IMG/VR virus record: IMGVR_UViG_3300045412_000261
Location: 64,001-128,000 of that record
Strand: one strand, 5' to 3'
From: a virus
DNA length: 64,000 nucleotides
Made by a program: the position numbers and the translations under genes. Under the pieces are notes generated by a model. The model did no database searches. It was given only the letters and a program-made list of their open reading frames with translations, and was not told the DNA's origin. Shown here one piece after another: positions 1 to 64,000 of this stretch (the stretch's first letter is position 1; the number at the start of each line of letters is the position of its first letter).

Positions 1-729
1 TCTTGCTGGTTCTATCTGACTTCTACCATAAGGTAAAAAATTACTATCCGATAATAGTCTAAAATGAGCTACTTCATGATAATCTAATTCTTTATTTTTT
101 CTTTCTTCATTTCTATAAATTATAGGGCTCATCTGTGTAGTATGCAATCCTTCGTATATAAATTTAACTTCATAAGGATTATGAGGGTTTGTGCCTTCTG
201 TTCTCCTAACCTCGTAGGCGGAAAGAGGTATAACATTTTTAATTCCTAATCCTTCTTCTATATCCAAATACAAATAAAAATCTCCATACTTACACAAAGA
301 TCTAGTCCAGCTCCAAAGATTATACTCTATGTTTAGTATGTCATAAAATAGATTATAAAGAATTTTTTTAATATTTTCGTTTGGAGTATTTATGTTTAGT
401 AAATCTCCTTCCACGGACATTACGGTGCTTTCGTCTGCATAAATATCTAAGGCCGACGCAATAATAGGATCTGTGTCCATCGCTTCGTAATCTGTAAATA
501 TTTGAAGCTTAGAGGAATGGAAGTTTATAGTATTGTTATTCGGAGAGTATCCGTACTGTCTAGTAGTATGTAGACCTGAAAATCTATCTACATAAGCTGT
601 TTTTTCCTTTGCTCCAGCTCCTTGTAATCTAGAGGTGTCTATGACTTTTATACGATCTTTTCCTATCCTTCTAACTATGACTTGTGTAGAGAATAGTCTC
701 TTTAGTTTTGCTTGTATTGAATTGTCCAT
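1..729 (-). CDS. Portal protein (T4 gp20-like), N-terminal 243 codons; runs off the window start
   Basis: Not in the ORF track. Manual translation from ATG at 729 gives MDNSIQAKLKRLFSTQVIVRR...DYEAMDTDPIIASALDIYADEST...NLWSWTRSLCKYGDFYL...EVAHFRLLSDSNFLPYGRSQIEPAR, which are typical gp20-like portal motifs. It lies directly downstream of the terminase. Confidence 0.9.
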   Translation of the reverse strand, partial: MDNSIQAKLKRLFSTQVIVRRIGKDRIKVIDTSRLQGAGAKEKTAYVDRFSGLHTTRQYGYSPNNNTINFHSSKLQIFTDYEAMDTDPIIASALDIYADESTVMSVEGDLLNINTPNENIKKILYNLFYDILNIEYNLWSWTRSLCKYGDFYLYLDIEEGLGIKNVIPLSAYEVRRTEGTNPHNPYEVKFIYEGLHTTQMSPIIYRNEERKNKELDYHEVAHFRLLSDSNFLPYGRSQIEPAR

Positions 730-733
730 TTTT

Positions 734-2314
734 TTATTTTATAAGCCAAGTTAAACTTTCTGATTCATTACTTCTAGTTTTCATAGACCATGAATCGTGT
801 ACTTTGTTAGAATTACTTGGAGTGTATATAGTTTTTGTTGTGTTATTTAGTAAAGTCCGAGAAAAACTTAAACCTAAAGTTTTCATTTTCAAAGAAGTAT
901 CTCGAACCCAAAGACCGATAGCAAAAGACATAACTAAATCATCATTGTATCCATCTCTAGCTTCTGCTTTGTGGTCTTTCCAAACAAATGTAAATAATTC
1001 CTGTATTAATCTCTTACTATATACTATCGGCGATTTTTCTCTAAAATATGTCTCTAATTTAGAAATCATTACAGGCCTTGTTTTAGTAGATGTCGTAAAT
1101 CCGGGAACCATGTTATCTTTAAGTAAATAGTCTTGATTTATATTAACATGCACATCTGGGTCTACAAAAGGATCATTGCGAAAAGTATAGTATAAATTTT
1201 GGTATCCTAAGTCCAAAATAGTTTGTAACACTGCCCATCCAACATAAGCATTTTCAATAGCAAGTAAAGCACCGTTATATTCAGAGGCTATACTCATCAA
1301 CAAATGCCCAAATTCGGTGGTGCCAATCATACTCTTAAATTCTGCAACTTGTTCTAAAGTCTCTATATTTAAAACATGAAATGCAGAAAAATCAGAAGAA
1401 TCTCCCCTAGATACATCCGCACATACAACATAAGTACAATCACTCTCAGGGTACTTCCATATCCACAAATCTCCTGCTTCTCCTCTTTTTTCAATAGGAT
1501 CTTTTACACAATTATTTTCATACCAGACTAATATACTACCGTCAACTACGGTATGTCCGGATGTTAAAAAGTCTCCATCACATTCTTGAGCTGCCGCTTT
1601 TTCTCCTAATAAAATGTCTTGTTCTTTTCTCCATTTCCAATCTCTCTCCGGATGAACAGTCCACGGTAAAAATATAGAAGTAAAATCTCCCCCATTTAAT
1701 GATTCTTGCCAAATTCTATGAAATAAATTACCAACTCCATTTGGTGTAGACAGCAAAATACAACTACCTCCTGTAGCTAATGTAGATTGTGCAGCTGTCC
1801 ATATTTCTTCTGAATTAGTAATGTGTGCTGCTTCATCTATAACTAATAAAGACAATGCCTCCGATCTCGCTGAATCTGGGCTAGATGATACTGCTTTTAC
1901 ACTAGACCCATTATTTTTAAATCTGAGCATCATTTTATTATCTTCTAAGGTTTCTTGTTTTAACCATGATGGTAAAAAATCATGCATCAATCTAATTTTA
2001 AGAACTAAATTTTTTGCTATATCTTGTTTAGTTGCAATAATAAGAACTTTATATCCATTATTAAATATCATATTATGCAAAATGAATGCAGCTGATAATG
2101 TAGAAATTCCTAACTGCCTACCCTTATTTATAATAATGTACCTTTCTTTGTACATCTTTTCTAATGTAGTCTCTTGAAATGGATAAAGACCAAATAAAAT
2201 TCTACCTTTCTTTGGATGTTCTATCTTACAATATTTTTTAGTAAAATATATTGGATCTTTTGCACATTTTTTATATTCTTGAGCTATCGCTAATTTTACT
2301 TTATTCGTTGACAT
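734..2314 (-). CDS. terL: Terminase large subunit (T4 gp17-like)
   Basis: Walker A-like KGRQLGIST, Walker B LLVIDEAA, motif III STPNG, RNase H-like nuclease motifs CADVSRG and NDDLV; adjacent to the portal. Confidence 0.95.
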   Translation of the reverse strand: MSTNKVKLAIAQEYKKCAKDPIYFTKKYCKIEHPKKGRILFGLYPFQETTLEKMYKERYIIINKGRQLGISTLSAAFILHNMIFNNGYKVLIIATKQDIAKNLVLKIRLMHDFLPSWLKQETLEDNKMMLRFKNNGSSVKAVSSSPDSARSEALSLLVIDEAAHITNSEEIWTAAQSTLATGGSCILLSTPNGVGNLFHRIWQESLNGGDFTSIFLPWTVHPERDWKWRKEQDILLGEKAAAQECDGDFLTSGHTVVDGSILVWYENNCVKDPIEKRGEAGDLWIWKYPESDCTYVVCADVSRGDSSDFSAFHVLNIETLEQVAEFKSMIGTTEFGHLLMSIASEYNGALLAIENAYVGWAVLQTILDLGYQNLYYTFRNDPFVDPDVHVNINQDYLLKDNMVPGFTTSTKTRPVMISKLETYFREKSPIVYSKRLIQELFTFVWKDHKAEARDGYNDDLVMSFAIGLWVRDTSLKMKTLGLSFSRTLLNNTTKTIYTPSNSNKVHDSWSMKTRSNESESLTWLIK

Positions 2315-2933
2315 CTATATTTAAATCTTTTTCATTTATATTATATGTTTCCATAATTTCATTTTTTAAATCATTAAAATCTGATTTAATCTTTTCTAAA
2401 AATGATTCTTTATTTTCGATTGACCATTTTTCAATAGATCCATCCGCATTAGAATATCCCATGTTATCAAATGATCTTAATAAAACTTCTACTTCTTTGG
2501 CTGCTTCTTTTAAAAATGAAATGGCATTCTCTTTCTTTTTATCATGAACGTAAGAATCAAATTTTCCATTTAATTTCAATTCTGCTTCGTATTTTATTGT
2601 ACATTCCAAACATCTTCCTGTTTTTTTTCCTAATTTTATATCTGCTTGACCAAATACTTTACCTTCACATGTATCTAAGCAATTTGGAAATTTCTGTATT
2701 TCATCTAATTTTTTTAAGATTTCTCTAACTCCTTTTGCTCTTTTTACTTTATATCCATCTCTTTGTTCCCATTCTGTAACATCCCCCATTGGTGATACTT
2801 CTTCCCAAATATCTCCAACTTTTCTTATTTGTGAATCTTCTACTTTTCTATATCCAATCGTCGTTCTTTTTTGAGATTTATGTTCCCCAACTAGAAGTTT
2901 TTTTACAGCTTCTATATTTTTTAATTTACTCAT
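2301..2933 (-). CDS. Hypothetical phage protein with Cys pairs (CLDTC, CLEC)
   Basis: 210-aa ORF overlapping both neighbours in the operon; possible Zn site; no function recognised. Confidence 0.75.
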
Positions 2934-5900
2934 GATTTTCTCCTTTTTCTAGTTTTGTAACTCTTTTATTTAAATCTTTTACCAAATCATATAGCTCTTG
3001 AATAGCTTTTAAATTATACACCGATAGTTTATCATAGTTAACAGCTAGTACTCCTTTTTGTCCCTCTATCTTAAACTCTTTTAATAATCCTGTTTTAAGG
3101 CCATCGGTTATATCTTGAGCTATAATACCTACTTCTTTATCGTTTACATTAGAAGGAACTCTATGAGATGTTGAATTTTTGTTAACTTCTAATATGACTC
3201 CTTTTAATTCATCCGTGTTCCAATTATAATTAACAGGTTTTATGCTATATAGTTGTTCTAGCACAGGATCTATTTCTTCTATATCCTTTTTTAGCCTTCT
3301 ATCCGAGAATGCTGCAAATGGTCCGCCTATGCCTCTCTCTCCTTTTTGTCCCTTTTGTCCTGTAGGACCGGTAGGACCGGTAGGACCCGTTGGACCGGCA
3401 GGACCCGGAGGGCCGGCAGGACCCGTAGGTCCCGGGGAGCCCGGTAGACCCGTGGGGCCGGTGTTTCCTGTTGGTCCGGTAAGTCCGGTAGGACCTGTTG
3501 GTCCGGTAGGGCCTAAATCTCCTTTAGATCCCTTAGCCCCAACTCCGGCTAATCCTGGGAATCCTATTTCACCCTTTTGTCCCTTAGGTCCGGGGCTTCC
3601 CGTATTTCCTTTAGGGCCTGGAATATTGCTAGGATTTCCGGCTGATCCCTTTGGTCCCGGCCCTCCAGGAGGACCTATTTCACCCTTTTGTCCCTTAGGT
3701 CCGGGGCTTCCCGTATTTCCTTTAGGGCCTGGAATATTGCTAGGATTTCCGGCTGATCCCTTTGGTCCCGGCCCTCCAGAAGGACCTATTTCACCCTTTT
3801 GTCCTTTAGACCCTGTATTTCCTGTGTTTCCTTTAGGGCCTGTTAGGCCAATATCTCCCTTACTTCCTTTATATCCTTTATACCCAATTTCACCTTTGCT
3901 TCCCTTGCTACCTGTAGGACCGGGAATAAAACTAGGATTTCCTTGAGGTCCTATGTCGCCTTTGTCACCCTTACTTCCGGAAAATCCGATTGAACCTATG
4001 TCTCCTTTATTGCCCTTGTCTCCTTTATATCCTTTATATCCAATTTCTCCTTTACTTCCTTTGAAATCACCTTTACTTCCTTTATCACCCTTACTTCCTT
4101 TATCACCTTTACTTCCGGATGGTCCTGGAGGACCTATTTTAGAACTTGGTATAGGAGATGGACTAGGTGACGGTGCAAAAACCCCTATACTCTCCGGAGA
4201 TGACATATTATGTACTAATATGTCTTCAACAAAAAAGTTTTGATTTTTCTCTACACTTAAATTGTATACAGTGCTTGATGTTGCGTATGAAAAAATAGTG
4301 GATATCTTTTCATAAGACAATGTTTTATAATTAAATAGTTCATCATTTATCGATAAATCCTTAGCTTTTTTCCAATATTTGTCATACCATCCTTTAACAT
4401 AAAAGGGATGCTCTTCGGTGCATTGTATGTCATTATTTATTACGTATAAATAATTTGCTTTTCCTACATGTTTGTATATTATTGTATCTTCTTGTAAGAT
4501 TTTGTTATCTATATCATAAGACATGATTGATTGTCCTATTGTAACTTCCTCTATTGTTATATAGCTATTATTTGCTGTTAATATCTTAGTAGATGGTATA
4601 AAGCAAGTAGGGCCTATAGATCCTGAAAATCCTTTGTCTCCTTTATCACCTTTACTTCCAGAAGGGCCAATAGAACCCGAAGGGCCGATAGGACCTGGAA
4701 TAAAACTAGGATTTCCTTGCGGTCCTAATTCTCCCTTTTGTCCCTTAGATCCAATATTTCCCTTAGATCCAATATTTCCCTTAGGTCCAATATTTCCCTT
4801 AGGTCCAGTATTACCTGTATTTCCCTTAGGACCGGGGATAAAACTAGGATTTCCTTGCGGTCCTGTATTGCCTTTATCACCTTTACTTCCAGAAGGGCCA
4901 ATAGAACCCGAAGGGCCGATAGGACCTGGAATAAAACTAGGATTTCCTTGCGGTCCTAATTCTCCCTTTTGTCCCTTAGATCCAATATTTCCCTTAGATC
5001 CAATATTTCCCTTAGGTCCAATATTTCCCTTAGGTCCAGTATTACCTGTATTTCCCTTAGGACCGGGGATAAAACTAGGATTTCCTTGCGGTCCTGTATT
5101 GCCTTTATCACCTTTACTTCCAGAAGGACCGGTAAATCCTAAGTTTCCTTTTTGTCCCTTAAGTCCTATAGATCCTTTATCTCCCTTACTTCCCGACGCT
5201 CCTATGGGACCTTTTTCCCCTCCACCGGCGATAGATACAAAACCTTTAAAACATTCTCCAAAAGTTATTTGAATTGTATTTTCATCTATTGCCGTGTAAT
5301 TTTCAGGTATAACTGAATTCCCGTCATATGAATATATAGTAAAAACAGGATATTCGATTCCTGTTCCGTGATTAACTGTAATAACATTACAACTATTCAG
5401 AGAACCTGTAAATACAGTGTTTCCAATTTCTCCTTTAGATCCGCTATTACCCTTTAACCCTGGATTTCCTTTAGGGCCTATATCTCCCTTATCTCCTTTT
5501 GTTGAAGAACTTGCTATTAATGCTTGAAATGCAGGACTACTGTTAAATGTATTTATTAAAAGTTGTTCATCAATAGTAACGTCAATATTAACTTTTACTC
5601 CATAAACTGTCGTGGAAAAATTAGCAGAGACTCCAATAACATTTAAATACTCTATTTCAAAAATATACTCAGTGTCTATTTTAGCTATTGGTAAATTATC
5701 TAAGGGAATATCTAAACAAAATTCATTAGGAGTTCCTCCATCAGATGCACTTGGGAAGATATCAATATCAGAGACATTCCATTGTCCTGCATTAATAATA
5801 AAGTTAGGTTTTATATTATCTTCTGAAGTAGCTTTAAATGTAAAAGTCTTTTTAATTTCAGACTTGTTATTACCTCCTATTATAGATCCTAAAAAAGTTC

Positions 5901-7539: not shown

Positions 7540-10500
7540 TTATGATATTAATTGAGAATGTCCGTTTTCCTTTACAATAAATAGTTCTTTTGATACATAA
7601 TCTTTAACTACATCTAAATGTGATATGCATAATATAAATCTAAAATATGATGTGAGCTCTTCTAAGAATAATCCTACATTAGCTATATTGTCAGAATCTA
7701 ATACACCAAATCCTTCATCTATAAAAAAGAAATCAGGTTTTGGAAGTACAGTAACATGATTTAATGCTGCTCTAATGGCTAAAGATGATATAAATTTCTC
7801 CATGCCAGAAGCTAATGAAAGAGGCCATTTAGGTCCATTTATGTAGCATATATAAACTTCTAATGTTTTATCAGATAACTCAAATTGAACATTGAATGCT
7901 GCTACATTTTTTAAAGCATCATTTACTACATTTTCTAAAACAGGTAAATAGTTTTTAATAATGAAAAGAGGAATTCCATCTCTTCTAGTCGCTTTCTCAA
8001 AAACAAAGTAATTATTATAAGTCAAAGTGTCATCTTTGAACTTTTTCATTTTTAATTTTATGTCTTTAATTTTTGATTCGTTGCTAGTTACTGTAGATTT
8101 ATGTCCACCTATAGTATAAGCTAATTGATATATAGCGTCATCTATTGATTTTTTTTCATCTAGTAACTTAGTTATTTCACTTTCTATTTCAGAGTTCTTT
8201 TGCTTTATATCTTTATATGACTCCTGTTCTTTTAATTTCTCGGAATAATCTAAAATTAAGTTTTTTGAGATTTGTATTTTCTCTTTTATAATATTTGCTT
8301 GATTTTCTATATTGTCCAAATTAGATTTTAGTTTATCTGCTTCGACTTTCTTGTCCTTGTATTTTTTATATAAGGAATCCGATATTTCTAAGTGCTCTAT
8401 ATGTTCTGCTACTTCTTTTTTATTTTGTTTTAGTTTATCTAGTTTTTCAGACAATCCAGGTAATTCTTTTTTAGCCTTTTCCCCATCTAATGCATACTTG
8501 TTGTTTTTTACACAATATACACAGTTAGGATCGTGCTCATAATCTTGTAGATGTTCAATTAATTTATTACTAGATTTTATTTCAGATTCCGTTACAGCTA
8601 TGTCTCTGTCAAGATCAGATAGTTTTTTTCTCACTTCAACTAGATTAGAAGATACATCAACTCTTTCTCCTATATCTTCTAACTCAGATAAATGAGATTT
8701 AAGGGCATTTCTAGCTTCTATAAAAGACTTTCTCTTATCGTCTAAGGATGAACTAAGCATATCTTCATTTCGCCTCTCTGCGTCTATTTTTGTGGCATAA
8801 TCTATATTTTCTTTAGGGTGATGAATTAATTCTTTTCTTTTGTCCTCAATTTTTACATATAGTGCATTAGAATTCTTTTTATTTAGTTCTAAGCTATCTT
8901 CTACTTGAGATAATTTAGTTCTAATTTCTGCTATATTATTTTCACACTCCGTTAAAGATTCATTATACTTTTGCTTTTGGTGGTTCTCAATTTCATATTT
9001 CAATTGCTTCAGATGTTCCTTAGATGTATCATTTAGCTTTTCAAATATATCTATATCAAAATACTTGTATAATAAGTCTTTTTTATCTTTTTGAGTCTTA
9101 TCAATAAAATCAGATTTATTATGTTGATCATACATCGTTATAAGCATAAAATTCTCATAACTTCCTAAATACTTTCTAATAATATCATTCGTCTCATATC
9201 TTTGCTCTCCATTTAAAGAAGTTCCGTCTTCTTTATAAAAATTAACAAGTACTTTTACCTTTCCGTCTTTTCCTTTTTTACCATGTCTTTCTATAAAGTA
9301 AGATTCTCCGGAAACAGATAATTCTAATCTACAATAAAACTCGGTAGATGATGTATTCAGTACCTCCGATCCTAGGCTTGTCTTACTACATTTATCAAAA
9401 ATACAATAAGTCATAGCATCTAGTAATGTGGATTTACCAGAGGCATTTGGTGAAAATAATCCGACAAGTCCACCTAATTCTCCTAGATTGAATACATTAC
9501 CTTCTCCGTATGAAAACATGTTAGAAAATTCAAATCGTATAGGTTTCCAAGTCACGCCTATAAATTCAGAAGGTTCGTCTAATTCTAAAGATGCTGTTTT
9601 ATGTATATCTAAAAACTTATCTGCTTGATATTCCTGTTTTAATTCATTTTGCACATAGTTTTCTAGCATCGAATGTCTCCAATCAAAATCTCTTATAATG
9701 TTTTCTTTTTCTAATGATACTTCCCCTTTGCCTGTATCAACTATGAATTTCGTTATTTTAGGCTTCTTTATTCGGATAACATTATATTTTTTCTCTAATC
9801 CTAAACAAAATGAATCTATAAATTCTTGAGTACAATTTTCGGCAGTGATTGCTACATTAAGATTATAAGGTAAATCTCCAGGTATTTTTTCTACTAATTT
9901 ATCATTCTTTAATTTAAATGTATAATAACAATGAGAAGATGGAATTTTAATAAACTCACTTTTTTTCTTATTTAAATCCCATTCTATAATTCCATGTGTT
10001 AAATCTTCTCCGAAGTTCTGTTGTATCAAACTAGATGGATAAGCTGCTGTTCTTTCTAAATTGAGATATTGATGTTTATGAATGTCCCCTAATAAAATAT
10101 AATCATAATCTGCATGTTCTAATACATCTAAATAATTTCCTTCTAATAGATATCCGTATGCTGTTGCCGAATTTTTTACCGGTCCATGATACAATAATAT
10201 TTTTGTGTCTGCATCAAAAGATTTTGCGGGGATTACATTTTCAATTTTATCTTTAACATGTAATAAACTAAATGCTATTTGTTCATATTTATATACATTT
10301 GTTTCATTCAAGAAATGTATTGTAGGTAAATCTAAACTTTTTATAATGGGAGTTAATGCATCTAATCTTGTTCTATTATTTAGATTTAAGTCATGGTTTC
10401 CTAATATTACTATTGTAGGAAGCATGTTTGCTAATGTAGATAATAATGTAGATACCACTGAGAATAATTCTGGAGACATGTTTGTTTTTGAATGTACGAT

Positions 10501-55847: not shown

Positions 55848-55896
55848 CTATTTTTTTAATTTTTACGTTAAATAATTGTTTATAACATTGTATATC

Positions 55897-56574
55897 ATGA
55901 TTATATCTCACAAATATAAATGTATCTTCATAAGAATTCCAAAGACCGGTTCAACTAGTGTAGAGACATATTTAAAAGAAGTTGACCCGGATTGTATTTC
56001 ATCAGGGGATAAACCTCCGTATGGGCACGACACATGTTCTCAATTACTAGAACAGCATGGTCATACAATATGGAACTCTTATTATAAATTTACTTTCATT
56101 CGAGAGCCTTATCAGTGGTACAAATCCTACTACTCGGATCTTTTGAATTATTCATGGGATAAAGATAGTGAACTAGCAAAAAAAAGTTTAGGTTTAATAT
56201 TGACAGATGATAATACTTTACCCGAACCTGTTAATTACACATTATATGAAAAGCACATAATTATAATTCAATTACTCAATGATTTTTGGTTTTATCCTAC
56301 TATAAATGAAAATATAATGGATAGTCATGTAACTCAAGTATCTTGGATAGATAAACCCATTAATTTTATTGGAAGAACAGAATTTTTAGATGAAGATTTT
56401 AGGGATATATGTAATAAATTAAGTATTCCATTTACAGAATTAAAAAGATTGAATACATCAGATTCACATAAATTAAGTCATAGTGAAGGATCTAAAAGAC
56501 TGATAAAATGTTTAGCGGAAAAAGATTTAGAATTATACTACAATCTAAAACCTTTAACAAATAATCGTTATTAA
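55897..56574 (+). CDS. PAPS-dependent sulfotransferase (Sulfotransfer_2-like)
   Basis: MIISHKYKCIFIRIPKTGSTS (5'-PSB loop), FTFIREPY..Y.SYY (3'-PB), FIGRTEFL.EDF; likely start at 55897. Confidence 0.82.
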   Translation: MIISHKYKCIFIRIPKTGSTSVETYLKEVDPDCISSGDKPPYGHDTCSQLLEQHGHTIWNSYYKFTFIREPYQWYKSYYSDLLNYSWDKDSELAKKSLGLILTDDNTLPEPVNYTLYEKHIIIIQLLNDFWFYPTINENIMDSHVTQVSWIDKPINFIGRTEFLDEDFRDICNKLSIPFTELKRLNTSDSHKLSHSEGSKRLIKCLAEKDLELYYNLKPLTNNRY

Positions 56575-57013: not shown

Positions 57014-57523
57014 ATGAGTGGTATTATTATTACTGATTATTTGAGGAGGTATTTACGAAAAGATTTAGATAATTTTCATAAGTATTTACAGATTATAGCG
57101 GAAGAAGGTGCTGATTATAGTGATAGATTAATTCGCCGCAGGGATAAACTACATTTAGATGCAATTAAAGGATTGTTTGCATTTGTTGTAGATTCCAAAA
57201 CATTTAATGATATTTCTTCCGCAGATAGAATATATTTTTTAATTGATGCCATGTATTATTATTTTCCATTCGGAAGACATGAAAAAATGAGAAAAGATGA
57301 AGCATTCATTTATGATGTGTTTATAAAAGAATGTAGAAAAGAAGATGTATTAAGAAGACAAGAATATGAGAAATGGTTAGTTAAAAAAAAGGGCGGGGAT
57401 TATTGGAAATGGATGCACCAGATATTAGGAGCTGATTGGGAAGAATCCAAAAAAGAATCAATGAAAATGAAAAAAGCATATAAAGAAAGAGTTAAAAGAA
57501 AAGAATTAAGAAATGAATCTTAA
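57014..57523 (+). CDS. Hypothetical protein
   Basis: 169-aa ORF with a basic C-terminus. Confidence 0.65.
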   Translation: MSGIIITDYLRRYLRKDLDNFHKYLQIIAEEGADYSDRLIRRRDKLHLDAIKGLFAFVVDSKTFNDISSADRIYFLIDAMYYYFPFGRHEKMRKDEAFIYDVFIKECRKEDVLRRQEYEKWLVKKKGGDYWKWMHQILGADWEESKKESMKMKKAYKERVKRKELRNES

Positions 57524-57538
57524 AAATAAATAAACAAC

Positions 57539-57856
57539 ATGAATTATAATGATGAAGATTTTTTAAGAAGAATAGTAGGAGTAGGAACATTAGGATACTC
57601 ATTAGAAAAAATAATAAATGTATTAGACATTCCTACATCTGAAATAACAACATTTAGCAACGAATTTTATAATAAAAATAGTGAAGTATATAGAGCATAC
57701 AAAAAAGGAATAGATAAAGCAGACTACGTCATAGACATGAAACTATTTGAAGAAGCTAAAAGTGGAAACATAAGAGCTTTAAAAAAATATGAAGAAAGAA
57801 AAGATAAAGAAATATATAGACAAAGAAGAGCACAAACATTAAAAGATGAAGAATAA
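57539..57856 (+). CDS. HTH protein resembling temperate-phage terminase small subunits
   Basis: LGYSLEKI..VLDI...F...AYKKG...L...A.SGN..A pattern; precedes the ParB genes. Confidence 0.5.
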   Translation: MNYNDEDFLRRIVGVGTLGYSLEKIINVLDIPTSEITTFSNEFYNKNSEVYRAYKKGIDKADYVIDMKLFEEAKSGNIRALKKYEERKDKEIYRQRRAQTLKDEE

Positions 57857-58460
57857 TATTGAATATATAGATGTAAATAGATTATCGGAGAATCCAAGAA
57901 ATAGTAAAATACATCCGGATGAGCAGATAGGTAAATTAATGAAGAGCATTACAGAGTTTGGGTTTAACATTCCCATTCTCATTGATAAAAAAAACATGAT
58001 TATTGCTGGACATGCTAGATTTACAGCAGCTAAGGCATTACATATAGAATCAATCCCATGTATCCGCATTGAGAATTTAACAGATGATCAAATAAGAGCT
58101 TATTCCATAGCAGATAATAAATTAACAGAATTAGGGGAATGGGACTACACAAAACTAAGCGATGAATTAGAATATCTCAATTCTATTGACATAGATGCAA
58201 TGGCCATGGGATTTGATTATGAAGATTTTGAAATGCTTAATGAATCTTTTCAAAATGATACTGACATCTTATCCACAAATAAATCTGAATCTTCTCCTGC
58301 ATCTAAAAATAAAAAAAGCATTGTCTTCTCATATAACATAGAAGATTATACAAACATGATGAAGAAATTCAAGACAGTAATGAATGAGAACGACCTAAAA
58401 GCTAATTCTGAAGTTATAAGATTATTGATTGAACATTACAATGAAAGACATCATGAGTAA
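57846..58460 (+). CDS. ParB/Srx N-terminal domain protein 1
   Basis: L..NPRNSKIH...QI..L..SI.EFGF..PILID...IIAGHAR..AA...AY.IADNKL.E..EWD. Confidence 0.88.
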   Translation: MKNNIEYIDVNRLSENPRNSKIHPDEQIGKLMKSITEFGFNIPILIDKKNMIIAGHARFTAAKALHIESIPCIRIENLTDDQIRAYSIADNKLTELGEWDYTKLSDELEYLNSIDIDAMAMGFDYEDFEMLNESFQNDTDILSTNKSESSPASKNKKSIVFSYNIEDYTNMMKKFKTVMNENDLKANSEVIRLLIEHYNERHHE

Positions 58461-59031
58461 ATTAAATATAGAAATTGTCAAAATAGATGAAATAAAAGAA
58501 TCAAATTATAATTCGAGAATACACAGCGAAGTTCAAATAGAGAAGATTGCCAACAGTATTAATGAATTTGGTTTTGTTAATCCCATTATTGTAGATGAAA
58601 ACAATGAAATAATAGCTGGACATGGTAGATATAGAGCAGCACTATTTAATAAATTAAAAGAAGTTCCTATTATACGTCTAATCCATCTCACCGAAGATAA
58701 TAAGAGAGCATTTATCATAGCGGATAATAAAATAGCGCTTTCCGGAGAATGGGATTATGATATGTTGAAAGATGAATTTGATATTATACTTAAGAGTGAA
58801 ATGGATATTGACTTGTTAGGATTCAATAAAAAGTTTATAGATTCAATGTTTAAAGAAAAAAATCCGGATGCTTTAGTTGTACATAAGTTAAAGACATTGA
58901 AAATAAATTTCGATGCTGACGATTATGATACTACAATTGATTCAATAAATGATATTATGGATAAAGAGGGTTGCGTAGATCATGAAGAAGTCTTAGTTAG
59001 ATTACTTGATTTTTATTTAGCAAAAGCATAG
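58453..59031 (+). CDS. ParB/Srx N-terminal domain protein 2
   Basis: Same motif set (NSRIH, EFGFVNPIIVD, IIAGHGRY, ADNKIA..GEWD); likely start at 58453 or 58441. Confidence 0.88.
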   Translation: MSKLNIEIVKIDEIKESNYNSRIHSEVQIEKIANSINEFGFVNPIIVDENNEIIAGHGRYRAALFNKLKEVPIIRLIHLTEDNKRAFIIADNKIALSGEWDYDMLKDEFDIILKSEMDIDLLGFNKKFIDSMFKEKNPDALVVHKLKTLKINFDADDYDTTIDSINDIMDKEGCVDHEEVLVRLLDFYLAKA

Positions 59032-59037
59032 TACAAT

Positions 59038-59753
59038 ATGAAATTATCCGATATAAAACCAAATCCTAAGAATCCGCACACAATATCAGAGGAAAAATTA
59101 GAAAAATTAAAAAATAGTATTGTAGAAATGCCCAAGGGTCTTTCTATAAAGCCAAAGTAATTTATATAAAAAATAGAAGAAAAGTTTTTTTGGACTTTTA
59201 CGAATTTCACTTAAAAAACAAGGCTCACGCAGGAGCCATATATTATGCATTTCCATATATTTTTGAATCATTAAATATGAGTATGAATCAAAAACTTTGG
59301 TTCTCCTTTATAAATGGATGCACTTAGAATGTAGTAAGTACTTATTTAATATATAAAGAATTCCTAGACTTAGATAATATAGATGTATTTAAATTATATG
59401 ATTTTTTTAGAAAAAATTATACTAAATTTGGCTAGGATATAGATAGAAGATATGCAAAAAATAAATTTGAAGATTGTATAAAAAATTATATAAAAAAACA
59501 GAATAAAATAGCAATTTTTGAAGGTGATAGATTTTCTAATTCAAAATTTATAAATAAATCTAACCCGTGTATCCTTAAGATACTAGGAGATGGAGAAAAA
59601 GGAAGAATTATAAGAAAAAGTAATCAATCCCTTAGACATATAAAAAGTATATCTACTAGGGTGAACAATATAAAAGCACATAAAAACTTTAGTAATTCAT
59701 CAGATTTTTAATTCTATATACAAAATTTAATTTCAGAAATAGAAAATAAATAA
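59038..59753 (+). pseudogene. Composite pseudogene: ParB N-terminal fragment + amino-acid:DNA transferase (aGPT-Pplase2-like) fragment + P-loop kinase-like C-terminal fragment
   Basis: 59038-59160 reads MKLSDIKPNPKNPH...KLKNSIVEMPK.LSIKP*. A shifted frame then reads VIYIKNRRKVFLDFYEFHLKNKAHAGAIYY...KLWFSFINGCT*N...KFG*DIDRRYAKNKF...IFEGDRFSN...GRIIRKSNQS...STRVNN to TAA 59751-59753, with TAGs at 59325 and 59433. Confidence 0.7.
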
Positions 59754-59771
59754 TACTTATATAAAAAAACT

Positions 59772-60137
59772 ATGATAAACGAATATATTGGATTTTTACT
59801 ACATTCTAGTACCCAAACAAGAATTTATCATTTACAAACATCATCTTACGCAAAACATAAAGCCTTAAATAAATATTATGATACTATTTTAGACCTCGTA
59901 GATTCTTTGGCAGAAGCATATCAAGGTAAATATGGTATTATAAAAGATATTAAAGTGCCTGGAAGTATCAAAAATATAGAAACAGATGATGATATTGTAA
60001 AATATTTTGGAACTCTATCCAATTATGTAGATAATAAAGTTAAAGACTTACCCGAAGACACATATCTTAGAAATATCTGTGACGAAATAGCAAGTTTAAT
60101 ATACCAAACGACTTACTTACTTAAGAATCTTGATTAA
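59772..60137 (+). CDS. Ferritin/Dps-like four-helix protein (DUF5856-like)
   Basis: LLHS.TQ..IYHLQT.SYAKHKAL..YY...DLVD.LAEAYQGKYG...NI.DEI...IY.T.Y.L. Confidence 0.75.
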   Translation: MINEYIGFLLHSSTQTRIYHLQTSSYAKHKALNKYYDTILDLVDSLAEAYQGKYGIIKDIKVPGSIKNIETDDDIVKYFGTLSNYVDNKVKDLPEDTYLRNICDEIASLIYQTTYLLKNLD

Positions 60138-61146: not shown

Positions 61147-61628
61147 AATAAATTTAAGTTTGTGAATTTATAACGGTCTTTTACTTTTAGAGAACTGTCT
61201 ATAAATAGACGAAGATACTTTGAATCAAAGAATAGTAAATCGTCTATATCGTTTGGATTCTCTGAATCTAAATACTTGAAATCAAAAATGACTTGTTCAA
61301 CTTCTCCATGCTCATCTAAATGTATTTCGCTATCATACCAGCCTGTAGGAGGATATAGAAAATATACATTCTCTATTTTATCCGAAACAAGTCCAATTTT
61401 TTTAATTCCTTTCTTGTCAAACTCATTTTGCTGAATTATCTTAGCATCTTTTCCCGGGTAAACTAAAGATTCTATTCTTATTTCTCCATCTATTTTATGC
61501 ATGATTTCATCAAAAATTATAGTCTTATCATAATTTTCCTTACCATACAGATTTTTTCTGAATACAGAAGCATACTCTTTGCTTCCTATAACTCCTTCAA
61601 TGTAAAAAATACCTTTAGATCTTTTCAT
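61125..61628 (-). CDS. Hypothetical protein
   Basis: 167-aa ORF in the operon. Confidence 0.65.
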   Translation of the reverse strand: MKRSKGIFYIEGVIGSKEYASVFRKNLYGKENYDKTIIFDEIMHKIDGEIRIESLVYPGKDAKIIQQNEFDKKGIKKIGLVSDKIENVYFLYPPTGWYDSEIHLDEHGEVEQVIFDFKYLDSENPNDIDDLLFFDSKYLRLFIDSSLKVKDRYKFTNLNLLCYNHQI

Positions 61629-62478
61629 AACTTCCGTCTAATCCTATTTTTGTGATAAATAATGTTTTAAAATTGTTCTGCAAAGATAAAGAAGTTTTAT
61701 CAAAAATCCAACCTTTATTCGAGAAATGTTTTTTTAATTTTCGTAGACTAGTAAATACAGATATAATATCTCCGTTATTATTTGTCACAATAAACGCTTC
61801 TTCTTTTCTTTCCAAGAGTTCTAAAGATTTCTTAAAAGGATTACCTGGCATGTTTTTTACTTGTTCCAACATATCTGCAACTAAATCTCTAGTTTCTTTT
61901 TGAACATCTTTCTTAATTCTCAATTTAACTAAGTGTATAAAAGCTAAAAAACTCATAGTCCAAATAAAGGTGGTCTCCAAAGATAGAGGAAGTATCGACC
62001 TAGCCTGTTCTTTACTTACTCCTAATTCAATTAACTCTTGATAAGCTGTTTTAGCATTATCTATTATATCATCTTGAATAATATTAGCTATTGTGTTACT
62101 TGTTTCATCTAAATCTTCACCACTACCTTGCTTTGAATCTTTTGACTGTAATCTAAATGTTTGAATAGCATAATAAAAATCAGAGAAATCTACATATCTT
62201 CCTGATATAGAATTTACAGACATATTCTCTATTGGTAAATTAACTTCAACGCCAATTTCATGCTTTCTTAGCTGCCTTTCTACATATAGTGGACACGATA
62301 TCCTAAATTGCAATTGCGCATGTCTAAAGGGAGATACATGCCCTTCTTCCCATAAAAACTCTAATAAATTTTCATTTTGGCTATCTAGATAATTTGAAGC
62401 ATCTTTGTCATAAGAAACTCTAGCAACATTAGCAATCTTAAGATCACTTCCCATAAAATCAATTAATTCTGCTTTCAT
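61615..62478 (-). CDS. thyX: Flavin-dependent thymidylate synthase
   Basis: MGSDL.IANVARVSY, GH.SPFRH, RQL.KH...S.N.ISGRY, GVSKEQARSILP, LR...Q.E.R. Confidence 0.92.
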   Translation of the reverse strand: MKAELIDFMGSDLKIANVARVSYDKDASNYLDSQNENLLEFLWEEGHVSPFRHAQLQFRISCPLYVERQLRKHEIGVEVNLPIENMSVNSISGRYVDFSDFYYAIQTFRLQSKDSKQGSGEDLDETSNTIANIIQDDIIDNAKTAYQELIELGVSKEQARSILPLSLETTFIWTMSFLAFIHLVKLRIKKDVQKETRDLVADMLEQVKNMPGNPFKKSLELLERKEEAFIVTNNNGDIISVFTSLRKLKKHFSNKGWIFDKTSLSLQNNFKTLFITKIGLDGSYEKI

Positions 62479-62536: not shown

Positions 62537-62566
62537 CAAATATAACTATATTATTTTGTATTTCAA
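62537..62566 (-). promoter_or_regulatory. Bacteroidota-type sigma70 promoter (TTG-N19-TATATTTG) for thyX
   Basis: -7 element at 62537-62544 and -33 TTG at 62564-62566. Confidence 0.7.
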
Positions 62567-63271
62567 CATTAATTTGAACAATTCTTCACTTCCATCTCCA
62601 TCCGACGGATAATGAACTCCTGATAACTCTCTAACATCTTTTATTTTATTGTAGAGATTTACAAAATATTTTCTAGATGATGGTTTCAATTTCATTAATT
62701 GGTAAATCATAACTAGGAAATCCATGGTATGCCCTGAAGGATAGGCAGCTGAATTTGCATCTGTTCTAGTTATAGGATGCAGCTTAATACCATACTCTCC
62801 GGCTAATTCGTTTGGCCTAGGTCTATTGAAGTAATCTTTAAGGTAGTACACTATAGGAAAAGCCTCATCAGACCAAGAGTTAACTTTTTTCCGGTCTACA
62901 CCTTTAATACCCAATTTTTCCGCCGTTTTCACGAAGAAATCTAAATGATGATGCTCCATATAAAAACACATACTTCTTTCTTTATCCGTAACATTATCAG
63001 AAATTTTTTTAAGATGTTCAAGTTCATTCCTTGTGGTATCGGAAGAATTCTTTGGAGGATGGAACTTTTTTATAAATTCGTCTATCATACCAGAATCTTT
63101 TGCTTTTTCAAGAGTTCCGTATTCATCTTTCTCAATCTTTCTTACATACTCTTCTGGTTGATTTCCAAATTTAACCGAGTCTATTTTCTTAGAATCCATA
63201 ATATCTTTTAAATAAATATGATTTTTTTGTAAAAAGGACTCATACTTGATTATTTTATTTGTCCTTTTCAA
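62546..63271 (-). CDS. Soluble PAP2-superfamily phosphatase/haloperoxidase-like protein
   Basis: All three motifs present: K...NRPRP, YPSGH, R...GVHYPSD. Confidence 0.85.
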   Translation of the reverse strand: MKRTNKIIKYESFLQKNHIYLKDIMDSKKIDSVKFGNQPEEYVRKIEKDEYGTLEKAKDSGMIDEFIKKFHPPKNSSDTTRNELEHLKKISDNVTDKERSMCFYMEHHHLDFFVKTAEKLGIKGVDRKKVNSWSDEAFPIVYYLKDYFNRPRPNELAGEYGIKLHPITRTDANSAAYPSGHTMDFLVMIYQLMKLKPSSRKYFVNLYNKIKDVRELSGVHYPSDGDGSEELFKLMLKYKII

Positions 63272-63503: not shown

Positions 63504-64000
63504 TTAGTGTGAATCCCCGACATTATTTTTTTCACTGTATATTAAATAATCTGGGTTTATTACTTTAGCTACTTTCGATCTATTTCCATCAACAGCTTTT
63601 ATAACAATACCTTCGTGAGGAACTTTAGTATTGTTTATAAAATTATTGAATACAAATGAATTTTTTATTTCTTCTGAGTAAAGTCCTTTATATAGGACTT
63701 CAACATAAGGTAATTTTAAATATTTTTCAGTTACATGTTTAGTAGCAGATAAATTTAAATATTTTTTATCTAATTCGATATCAAAAATACAAAGTTGTAT
63801 GTCATCTAATCCGTACTCATAATTTTTTTGGATTCCTTTTCCGTATATTTCACCATATATTATAAAACCGGTCCCTATGCTCATTTCACCTATTCTAGAA
63901 TTTTTATTAACAAGGTTCCATAGTTTACTTTTGATATCGTATTTTGTTTCAATATCATACCAAATATTAGTATCATAAAAACCTTGGCTATCAGATCCTT
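63504..64000 (-). CDS. RNA ligase (Rnl2/DRB0094-like), C-terminal part; starts beyond the window
   Basis: The frame is open to the window end (GSDSQGFYDTNIWY...), then IIYGEIYGKGIQKNY, IFDI, HEGIVIK, KVINPDYL. Confidence 0.85.
   Translation of the reverse strand, partial: GSDSQGFYDTNIWYDIETKYDIKSKLWNLVNKNSRIGEMSIGTGFIIYGEIYGKGIQKNYEYGLDDIQLCIFDIELDKKYLNLSATKHVTEKYLKLPYVEVLYKGLYSEEIKNSFVFNNFINNTKVPHEGIVIKAVDGNRSKVAKVINPDYLIYSEKNNVGDSH

Follow-up and report, generated by a model that had tools for sequence, protein, structure and literature searches.

An apparently gene-free gap in a phage genome as the probable remnant of a thymine-hypermodification cassette

Why should a gene-dense phage genome contain a gap of some 740 bp without a recognisable gene? 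The question arises in a 64,000-nucleotide stretch of phage DNA (hereafter the window), which corresponds to positions 64001-128000 of the 142.6-kb IMG/VR record IMGVR_UViG_3300045412_000261 (estimated completeness 82 %, G+C 31.5 %). Under genetic code table 11 the window is dense in genes, and the ~740 bp between a gene for a ParB-fold protein, ParB2 (58429-59031), and a DUF5856 gene (59772-60137) hold no table-11 open reading frame (ORF) of at least 60 amino acids (aa). A blastn search with 3.2 kb of the region against GenBank phages gave no match. An earlier note, made from the letters alone, had read this apparently intergenic stretch as three fused fragments of a collapsed thymine-hypermodification module, namely a ParB start, a piece of an aGPT-Pplase2/amino-acid:DNA transferase (AADT) and a piece of the associated P-loop kinase. 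All three fragments are indeed present, far beyond chance, and homology to intact relatives supports the collapsed module. Of the note's further arguments, a terminase small subunit (TerS) upstream found no support, and those from repurposed ParB genes and the presence of thyX did not hold. Judging from sequence homology, we consider it highly probable (roughly 90 %) that window positions 59031-59772 are the pseudogenised remnant of a post-replicative thymine-hypermodification cassette. The remnant is a dead copy of an already published type of system, and its history is one of ordinary gene decay.

The remnant can be read against relatives in which the cassette is whole. Searching viral contigs with ParB2 yielded 17 close relatives, in which ParB2 is 82-87 % identical, and the window proteins were then mapped onto them. 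Two of these loci, L014 and L015, hold the intact locus that the earlier note had proposed to look for, a 3-kb insert of three genes at the same site. In L014 the first gene encodes a third ParB of 191 aa (ParB3, with a ParB_N domain), so that the cassette supplies its own ParB, distinct from ParB2 and from the neighbouring backbone paralogue ParB1. The second gene encodes a 258-aa TET/JBP-type dioxygenase (phrog_6059, E 3e-46), in whose translation HxD and a distal His are visible. The third gene encodes a 500-aa fusion of an ADDT domain (E 3e-22) and, behind it, a P-loop domain that has a Walker A loop. Intact relatives of the transferase score 80 bits against the ADDT profile, and the ADDT family is described in PMC8989533 under its earlier name, aGPT-Pplase. 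The intact P-loop domain gives generic P-loop matches in Pfam; the best named kinase family, Ploopntkinase3, reaches E 0.07-0.22, which is not significant, and a tblastn search of the domain against phages returned no match. Two PHROG labels in this locus look misleading: phrog_6059, which matches the dioxygenase (L014 7224-8000), is called a queuine tRNA-ribosyltransferase, and phrog_800, which matches the P-loop domain (9069-9569, E 2e-5), a terminase small subunit.

The remnant region was compared with L014 by blastn, which defines its blocks and its deletions, the deletion sizes being relative to L014. Three blocks, colinear with the intact locus, were obtained: 58900-59153 matches L014 6472-6725 at 81 % identity and spans the 3' end of the ParB2 gene together with ParB3 codons, 59168-59488 matches L014 8090-8410 at 76 %, and 59483-59893 matches L014 9311-9724 at 80 %. 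All cassette pieces lie on the + strand.

The first piece (59038-59153) holds codons 1-39 of the cassette ParB, and its ORF runs on to a stop at 59158-59160. In amino acids, the 39 codons of this ParB3 stub (ORF 59038-59160) are 92 % identical to the L014 ParB3 (tblastn E 1.5e-20), and the stub matches phrog_620 (E 2.4e-5). Since 39 of 191 codons are left, a cognate ParB with both domains is missing from the window cassette. The ParB start seen in the earlier note is thus real, whereas the proposed repair of the frame by one restored base, giving KP(I)VIY, is rejected: ParB3 homology stops at 59153, transferase homology begins at or before 59168, and the residues VIY align better with the transferase N-terminus (IDY) than with a ParB continuation. 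If TAG were read as Gln, ParB2 and the ParB3 stub, which share a frame, would form a 243-aa ORF (58429-59160, + strand); we judge this fusion to be a coincidence, the two being separate genes in intact relatives.

At the first deletion junction (59154-59167) homology stops at 59153 (L014 6725) and restarts at 59168 (L014 8090). With the missing 1364 bp went the rest of ParB3 (codons 40-191), the TET/JBP dioxygenase gene in its entirety and the beginning of the transferase gene. Behind the junction, positions 59168-59488 correspond to about codons 8-114 of the fused transferase gene (~107 codons), without a start codon and with two TAG codons, which are the only interruptions of the frame 59118-59711. 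The RRKVFLDFYEFHLK... stretch sits in the frame from 59118 and, when read through, matches Pfam ADDT (PF18724; E 5e-6, 26.8 bits against a cut-off of 26.2) over profile positions 12-111 of 232. The same translation matches phrog_3271 (E 1e-16), and a six-frame search of the window's own record gave a single ADDT match, of 25.2 bits (just below the cut-off) and with 2 internal TAG. By tblastn against GenBank phages, 372 records were matched, including ViI-like Ackermannviridae, and the annotated aGPT-Pplase clade 2 gene of Glutamicibacter phage Montesquieu matched the transferase fragment at E 4e-14. The block shares 69 % of its residues with its intact counterpart in L014 (E 6e-50) and 91 % with P0039, the closest intact protein (503 aa), which comes from an independent assembly. 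The ADDT, phrog_3271 and Montesquieu matches bear out the earlier naming of this fragment as an aGPT-Pplase2/AADT, and the similarity that the note expected from its stop-corrected translation was found with both Pfam ADDT and tblastn.

The second deletion, whose junction lies at 59483-59488, is an in-frame loss of 900 bp. It removed about codons 115-414 of the fusion protein (300 codons), including an LE(T/S)xxC motif and the Walker A loop, which stand at positions 245 and 350 of the L014 protein. In an alignment that takes in distant homologues from Mycobacterium phage Fortunato, Glutamicibacter phage Montesquieu and a ViI-like Kuttervirus, the motif is conserved in these as well as in L014 and P0039, and we infer that it probably holds the essential Glu/Cys pair of PMC8989533. 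The window transferase would therefore lack its essential Cys and the neighbouring Glu, both within the deleted part. What follows, 59484-59753, encodes the end of the P-loop (kinase-type) domain (its last ~90 codons) and contains a premature TAA and the ancestral stop at 59751-59753. Its EGDRFSN... stretch, which the earlier note had assigned to the kinase, belongs to the C-terminus of this domain in the fusion with the transferase (69 % identity to L014, E 2e-30; ~94 % to P0039). The P0039 alignment extends past the premature TAA to the ancestral stop, the last base of which, 59753, is exactly where the note had let the module end. With the Walker A loop deleted, neither this motif nor a kinase-family match is found in the P-loop remnant.

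Three nonsense codons interrupt the fused gene: TAG at 59325-59327 in place of an ancestral Gln, TAG at 59433-59435 in place of Trp, and TAA at 59709-59711 in place of Leu. Two of them had been listed before; the actual count is three. With no start codon, three in-frame stops and 300 codons gone, no complete transferase ORF is left. One might suppose that the frame 59118-59711 is nevertheless expressed by TAG read-through or recoding into a functional short transferase-like protein, the more so as both internal stops before 59709 are TAG and the second deletion is in frame. However, TAG ends 17 of 136 long ORFs, among them that of ParB2, and thus acts as a normal stop in a genome with dense table-11 coding. 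The genome holds no suppressor tRNA, its tRNAs being Met and Thr only, and the TAG codons replace different residues, with the TAA replacing a third, so that no consistent recoding emerges. The lost start codon, the deleted Glu/Cys motif and Walker A loop, and a TAA before the ancestral end add to this, and we reject TAG recoding as next to impossible.

Is the decayed cassette then still of use in some other form? A remnant kept for a new role, as leader, promoter or terminator of the DUF5856 gene, as a 40-aa ParB3 stub or as another small ORF, might be expected to evolve under constraint. All dN/dS values (nonsynonymous to synonymous substitution rates) were calculated against L014. In the flanks they are 0.033 for a 169-aa ORF (57014-57523), 0.044 for DUF5856, 0.056 for ParB2, 0.084 for ParB1 and 0.084 for a 105-aa gene upstream of it; in the remnant they are 0.13 for the N-terminal and 0.22 for the C-terminal block. 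The remnant values are well below 1, and the ParB3 stub retains its ATG and its high identity, which would suit a new role. But low dN/dS is also expected if inactivation was recent relative to the split from L014, and the G+C content of the remnant, 23 % against 28 % in the intact gene, may reflect drift. Moreover, in twelve of the relatives (L002-L013) the site is empty, with ParB2, ~45 bp and then DUF5856. These manage with a 45-bp spacer and the same leader motif ahead of DUF5856, so the extra 700 bp are dispensable, and we think a new role very unlikely. On the reading as a dead cassette, the values of 0.13-0.22 imply that most of the divergence accrued under selection, with some relaxation; the gene probably had a long functional past and was inactivated only recently, measured against its split from the L014 allele.

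The two deletions (1364 and 900 bp) and three nonsense mutations would together have destroyed every step of the pathway in the window phage. No TET/JBP-type 2OG-Fe(II) dioxygenase (2OG, 2-oxoglutarate) is present in the window or in the whole 142.6-kb record, and searches of that record for Tet_JBP, a ThyA-type hydroxymethylase, DpdA and a C5-methyltransferase found none. Since no other source of 5-hydroxymethyluracil (5hmU) was found in the record, the phage should carry ordinary thymine, as far as the T-dioxygenase (thymine dioxygenase) pathway goes.

Several points weigh against our reading of the gap. The L014 dioxygenase matches Pfam Tet_JBP at E 8e-8 and 32.2 bits, under the cut-off of 34.9, and the putative kinase role of the P-loop domain is taken from its context. 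With the record 82 % complete, a 5hmU source might lie in the missing part. The decayed allele is seen in a single record and is known from assembled sequence, so that a minority defective variant or a mis-assembly is possible. The remnant could accordingly have arisen as an error of sequencing or assembly, or it could stem from a rare defective genome in a population whose real cassette is intact. The occurrence in one record fits this, as does the outcome of exact-pattern searches, in which both deletion junctions were sought in viral contigs and junction 1 in metagenome contigs and no second copy was found. An artefact is hard to reconcile with the junctions themselves, which show at most 2-3 bp of A/T microhomology, L014 having no long repeat at the deletion ends on which an assembly graph might have collapsed. 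Nor are the three nonsense codons, which arose independently by substitution, or the additional substitutions towards the 3' end errors of the kind that assembly makes, and the flanking genes are intact and colinear. We therefore regard an artefact or rare variant as very unlikely, and retain the remnant as a genuine decayed cassette.

What would the intact cassette do? Published work offers a scheme. Some phage T-dioxygenases, which form a subclass, act on double-stranded DNA only with the help of a cognate short ParB, and P-loop kinases, AADTs and GATases are linked to them (PMC13229309). 5-Hydroxymethyldeoxyuridine (5-hmdU) DNA kinases phosphorylate 5hmU in DNA, and AADTs transfer glycine or serine via a Cys-dependent exocyclic-methylene intermediate, for which a Cys/Glu pair is essential (PMC8989533). 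Metavirome contigs with a TET_JBP gene in place of a deoxyuridine monophosphate (dUMP) hydroxymethylase have also been described (PMC8989533). The L014 cassette appears, from its genes, to fit this T-dioxygenase/kinase/AADT scheme. By analogy with both studies (PMC13229309, PMC8989533), ParB3 would activate the TET/JBP-type dioxygenase, which would convert thymine in double-stranded phage DNA into 5hmU; the P-loop domain would then phosphorylate the hydroxyl of 5hmU; and the fused AADT, through its Cys/Glu pair, would swap the phosphate for an amino acid.

Among known systems, the cassette is most like the ParB-dependent T-dioxygenase pathways (5mYOX clade C1; O'Toole et al. 2026, PMC13229309), whose described gene set is carried by L014, L015 and a variant in L035. 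Shared are a short, two-domain ParB (nucleotide-binding domain at the N-terminus plus C-terminal domain), a TET/JBP-type dioxygenase, a P-loop protein and an AADT, and the dioxygenase has no neighbouring C5-methyltransferase in the intact relatives. Unlike those systems, the window holds fragments only and nothing functional, the L014 protein fuses AADT and P-loop domain in 500 aa, and two additional ParB paralogues of the backbone precede the cassette. The ADDT match also relates it to the aGPT-Pplase clade 2/AADT and 5-hmdU DNA kinase of phages M6, ViI and PaMx11 (Lee et al. 2021, PMC8989533), with homology to ViI-like Kuttervirus and other clade 2 genes and with the Glu/Cys motif in intact relatives. 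M6, ViI and PaMx11 make 5hmdU before replication by a dUMP hydroxymethylase and have pyridoxal phosphate (PLP)-dependent decarboxylase and radical S-adenosylmethionine (SAM) tailoring enzymes (PMC8989533), whereas the L014 cassette has neither dUMP hydroxymethylase nor tailoring enzymes, and the window copy lacks the catalytic motif.

The gene content of the cassette varies. In the metagenome contig B570J29032_109944034 (L035, 415-3795), ParB3 is 99 % and the dioxygenase 100 % identical to L014. Behind them lie a 235-aa gene with a weak match to GATase_6 (E 0.009), a divergent AADT of 275 aa (27 % identity) and a P-loop protein of 159 aa, the last two as separate genes; this arrangement suggests module shuffling inside the cassette. 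The gene set is also found in phages of unrelated background, T4-like and marine contigs among them, where AADT and P-loop domain are fused or separate, consistent with horizontal movement. In a further metagenome contig, marine or freshwater (L027, 89-1929), two tandem ParB3-like genes stand directly upstream of a TET/JBP gene; tandem ParBs beside a dioxygenase therefore occur outside the phage group of the window as well.

The same site can hold a different chemistry. In the relative L017 (IMGVR_UViG_3300008266_011200, 536-3963) it is occupied by a 7-deazaguanine DNA-modification cassette, with ParB3, a DpdA-like transglycosylase (phrog_887, E 8e-45), a methyltransferase-like gene, QueD, QueE and GTP cyclohydrolase I (FolE) in this order; no QueC was seen in the L017 locus. 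The ParB3 proteins of L014 and L017 are ~85 % identical over residues 1-117 and ~17 % beyond. A second, unrelated viral contig (L047, 3341-4733) likewise has a ParB3-like gene directly upstream of DpdA. Bacterial DpdA works with the ParB-fold ATPase DpdB (PMC10164549), and the pairing of a ParB-fold protein with DpdA in L017 and L047 recalls this 7-deazaguanine system. The likeness is one of fold and pairing: at 177-191 aa, the phage ParB3 falls far short of DpdB in size, and the window itself does not hold the system.

In trees of ParB2 and DUF5856, cassette-bearing loci are scattered among empty ones, and the DUF5856 of L014 is almost identical to that of the empty-site locus L012. The scatter implies that gain or loss of the whole cassette has been recent and repeated. 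The earlier proposal that the cassette was acquired from another phage is plausible; the trees do not root the direction, gain or loss, which is not proven. We tentatively put these observations together as follows, as a possibility rather than a probability: the gap between ParB2 and DUF5856 may be a site at which modification cassettes are swapped. Each cassette would be headed by a ParB3 that acts as a modular adaptor, with a shared N-terminal nucleotide-binding domain and a cassette-specific C-terminal domain, the latter selecting the DNA-modifying partner, either a T-dioxygenase or a DpdA transglycosylase. Exchange might proceed by recombination between the shared 5' half of ParB3 and the conserved DUF5856 leader, and the window remnant would be a snapshot of cassette turnover caught in stepwise deletion.

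As the intact cassette type is already published (PMC13229309, PMC8989533), the interest of the locus lies mainly in this cassette-swap site of the relatives. A single site in near-identical backbones is either empty, or filled with one of two versions of the ParB/T-dioxygenase/kinase/AADT cassette, or filled with a ParB/DpdA deazaguanine cassette, and so provides a natural near-isogenic set of genomes for testing the cost of these modifications and the protection they afford. The prediction is plain thymine in the window phage and amino-acid-modified thymine or 7-deazaguanine in its close relatives. The relatives also allow a test of whether the C-terminal domain of a ParB-like activator sets partner specificity, a question left open in PMC13229309. 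More generally, an ORF-free phage stretch can conceal a recognisable dead DNA-modification pathway.

The genes around the site, which the earlier note had partly drawn into the module, belong to the backbone. On the left, ParB1 (57846-58460, + strand, 204 aa) and ParB2 (+ strand, 200 aa), which forms the left flank of the variable site, are ParB-fold proteins with intact ORFs. They match Pfam ParB_N (PF02195) at 35.6 and 42.9 bits, respectively, against a cut-off of 26.3, and phrog_620 at E 2e-49 and 2e-50; ParB1 is found in every relative that covers its position. That both genes are intact was correctly seen, and their low dN/dS values indicate strong purifying selection. A role as repurposed leftovers of the module is not borne out, for ParB1, ParB2 and the 105-aa gene are present in all covering relatives, including the 12 with an empty site. 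Their presence, like that of thyX, in relatives with the site empty or filled marks these genes as backbone.

The 105-aa gene (57539-57856, + strand), outside the cassette, encodes a conserved helical protein with a possible helix-turn-helix (HTH) and is 91-93 % identical in the related loci covering it. It had been labelled TerS-like, a relationship that could not be detected. The protein has no Pfam match, and its PHROG matches are weak and to families of unknown function; a TerS match was sought in Pfam, PHROGs and a PDB profile search, and none was found. Its AlphaFold2 (AF2) model (pLDDT, the per-residue confidence score, 91.5) consists of five helices. With this model, Foldseek found nothing significant (best E 1.1; Sf6 TerS E 3.5) and VIA-align placed Sf6 TerS at rank 35 (Z 3.7). 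The protein atlas gave hypothetical-protein clusters only, and the terminase large subunit gene (TerL, 734-2314) lies 55 kb away. The TerS identity thus found no support.

On the right, an A/T-rich motif ahead of the DUF5856 ATG (59754-59771, + strand), the conserved leader of that gene, is common to the empty, thymine-cassette and deazaguanine-cassette loci and forms the right boundary of the variable site. The DUF5856 gene itself (+ strand; Pfam DUF5856 E 5e-24, phrog_858) is Dps-like and makes up the right flank. Further on, thyX (61615-62478, - strand) encodes a flavin-dependent thymidylate synthase of the backbone (Pfam Thy1, PF02511, E 7e-39, 134 bits, above the cut-off). By eye, the segment of its product in which the canonical RHR motif would be expected seems to read differently (LRKHE), which may be nothing. 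The intact thyX had been taken as a sign of a genome that now makes ordinary thymine. This argument fails, as relatives with an intact cassette have thyX too (86 % identity), as do relatives without one. Because the pathway oxidises thymine already in DNA and needs ordinary thymine (PMC13229309), thyX is uninformative on the loss of modification.

Near the locus, the window also encodes a sulfotransferase-family protein (55876-56574, + strand; Pfam E 4e-9), a PAP2-like phosphatase (62546-63271, - strand; E 6e-6, slightly below the cut-off) and an RNA-ligase-family protein (63504-63998, - strand; E 8e-11).

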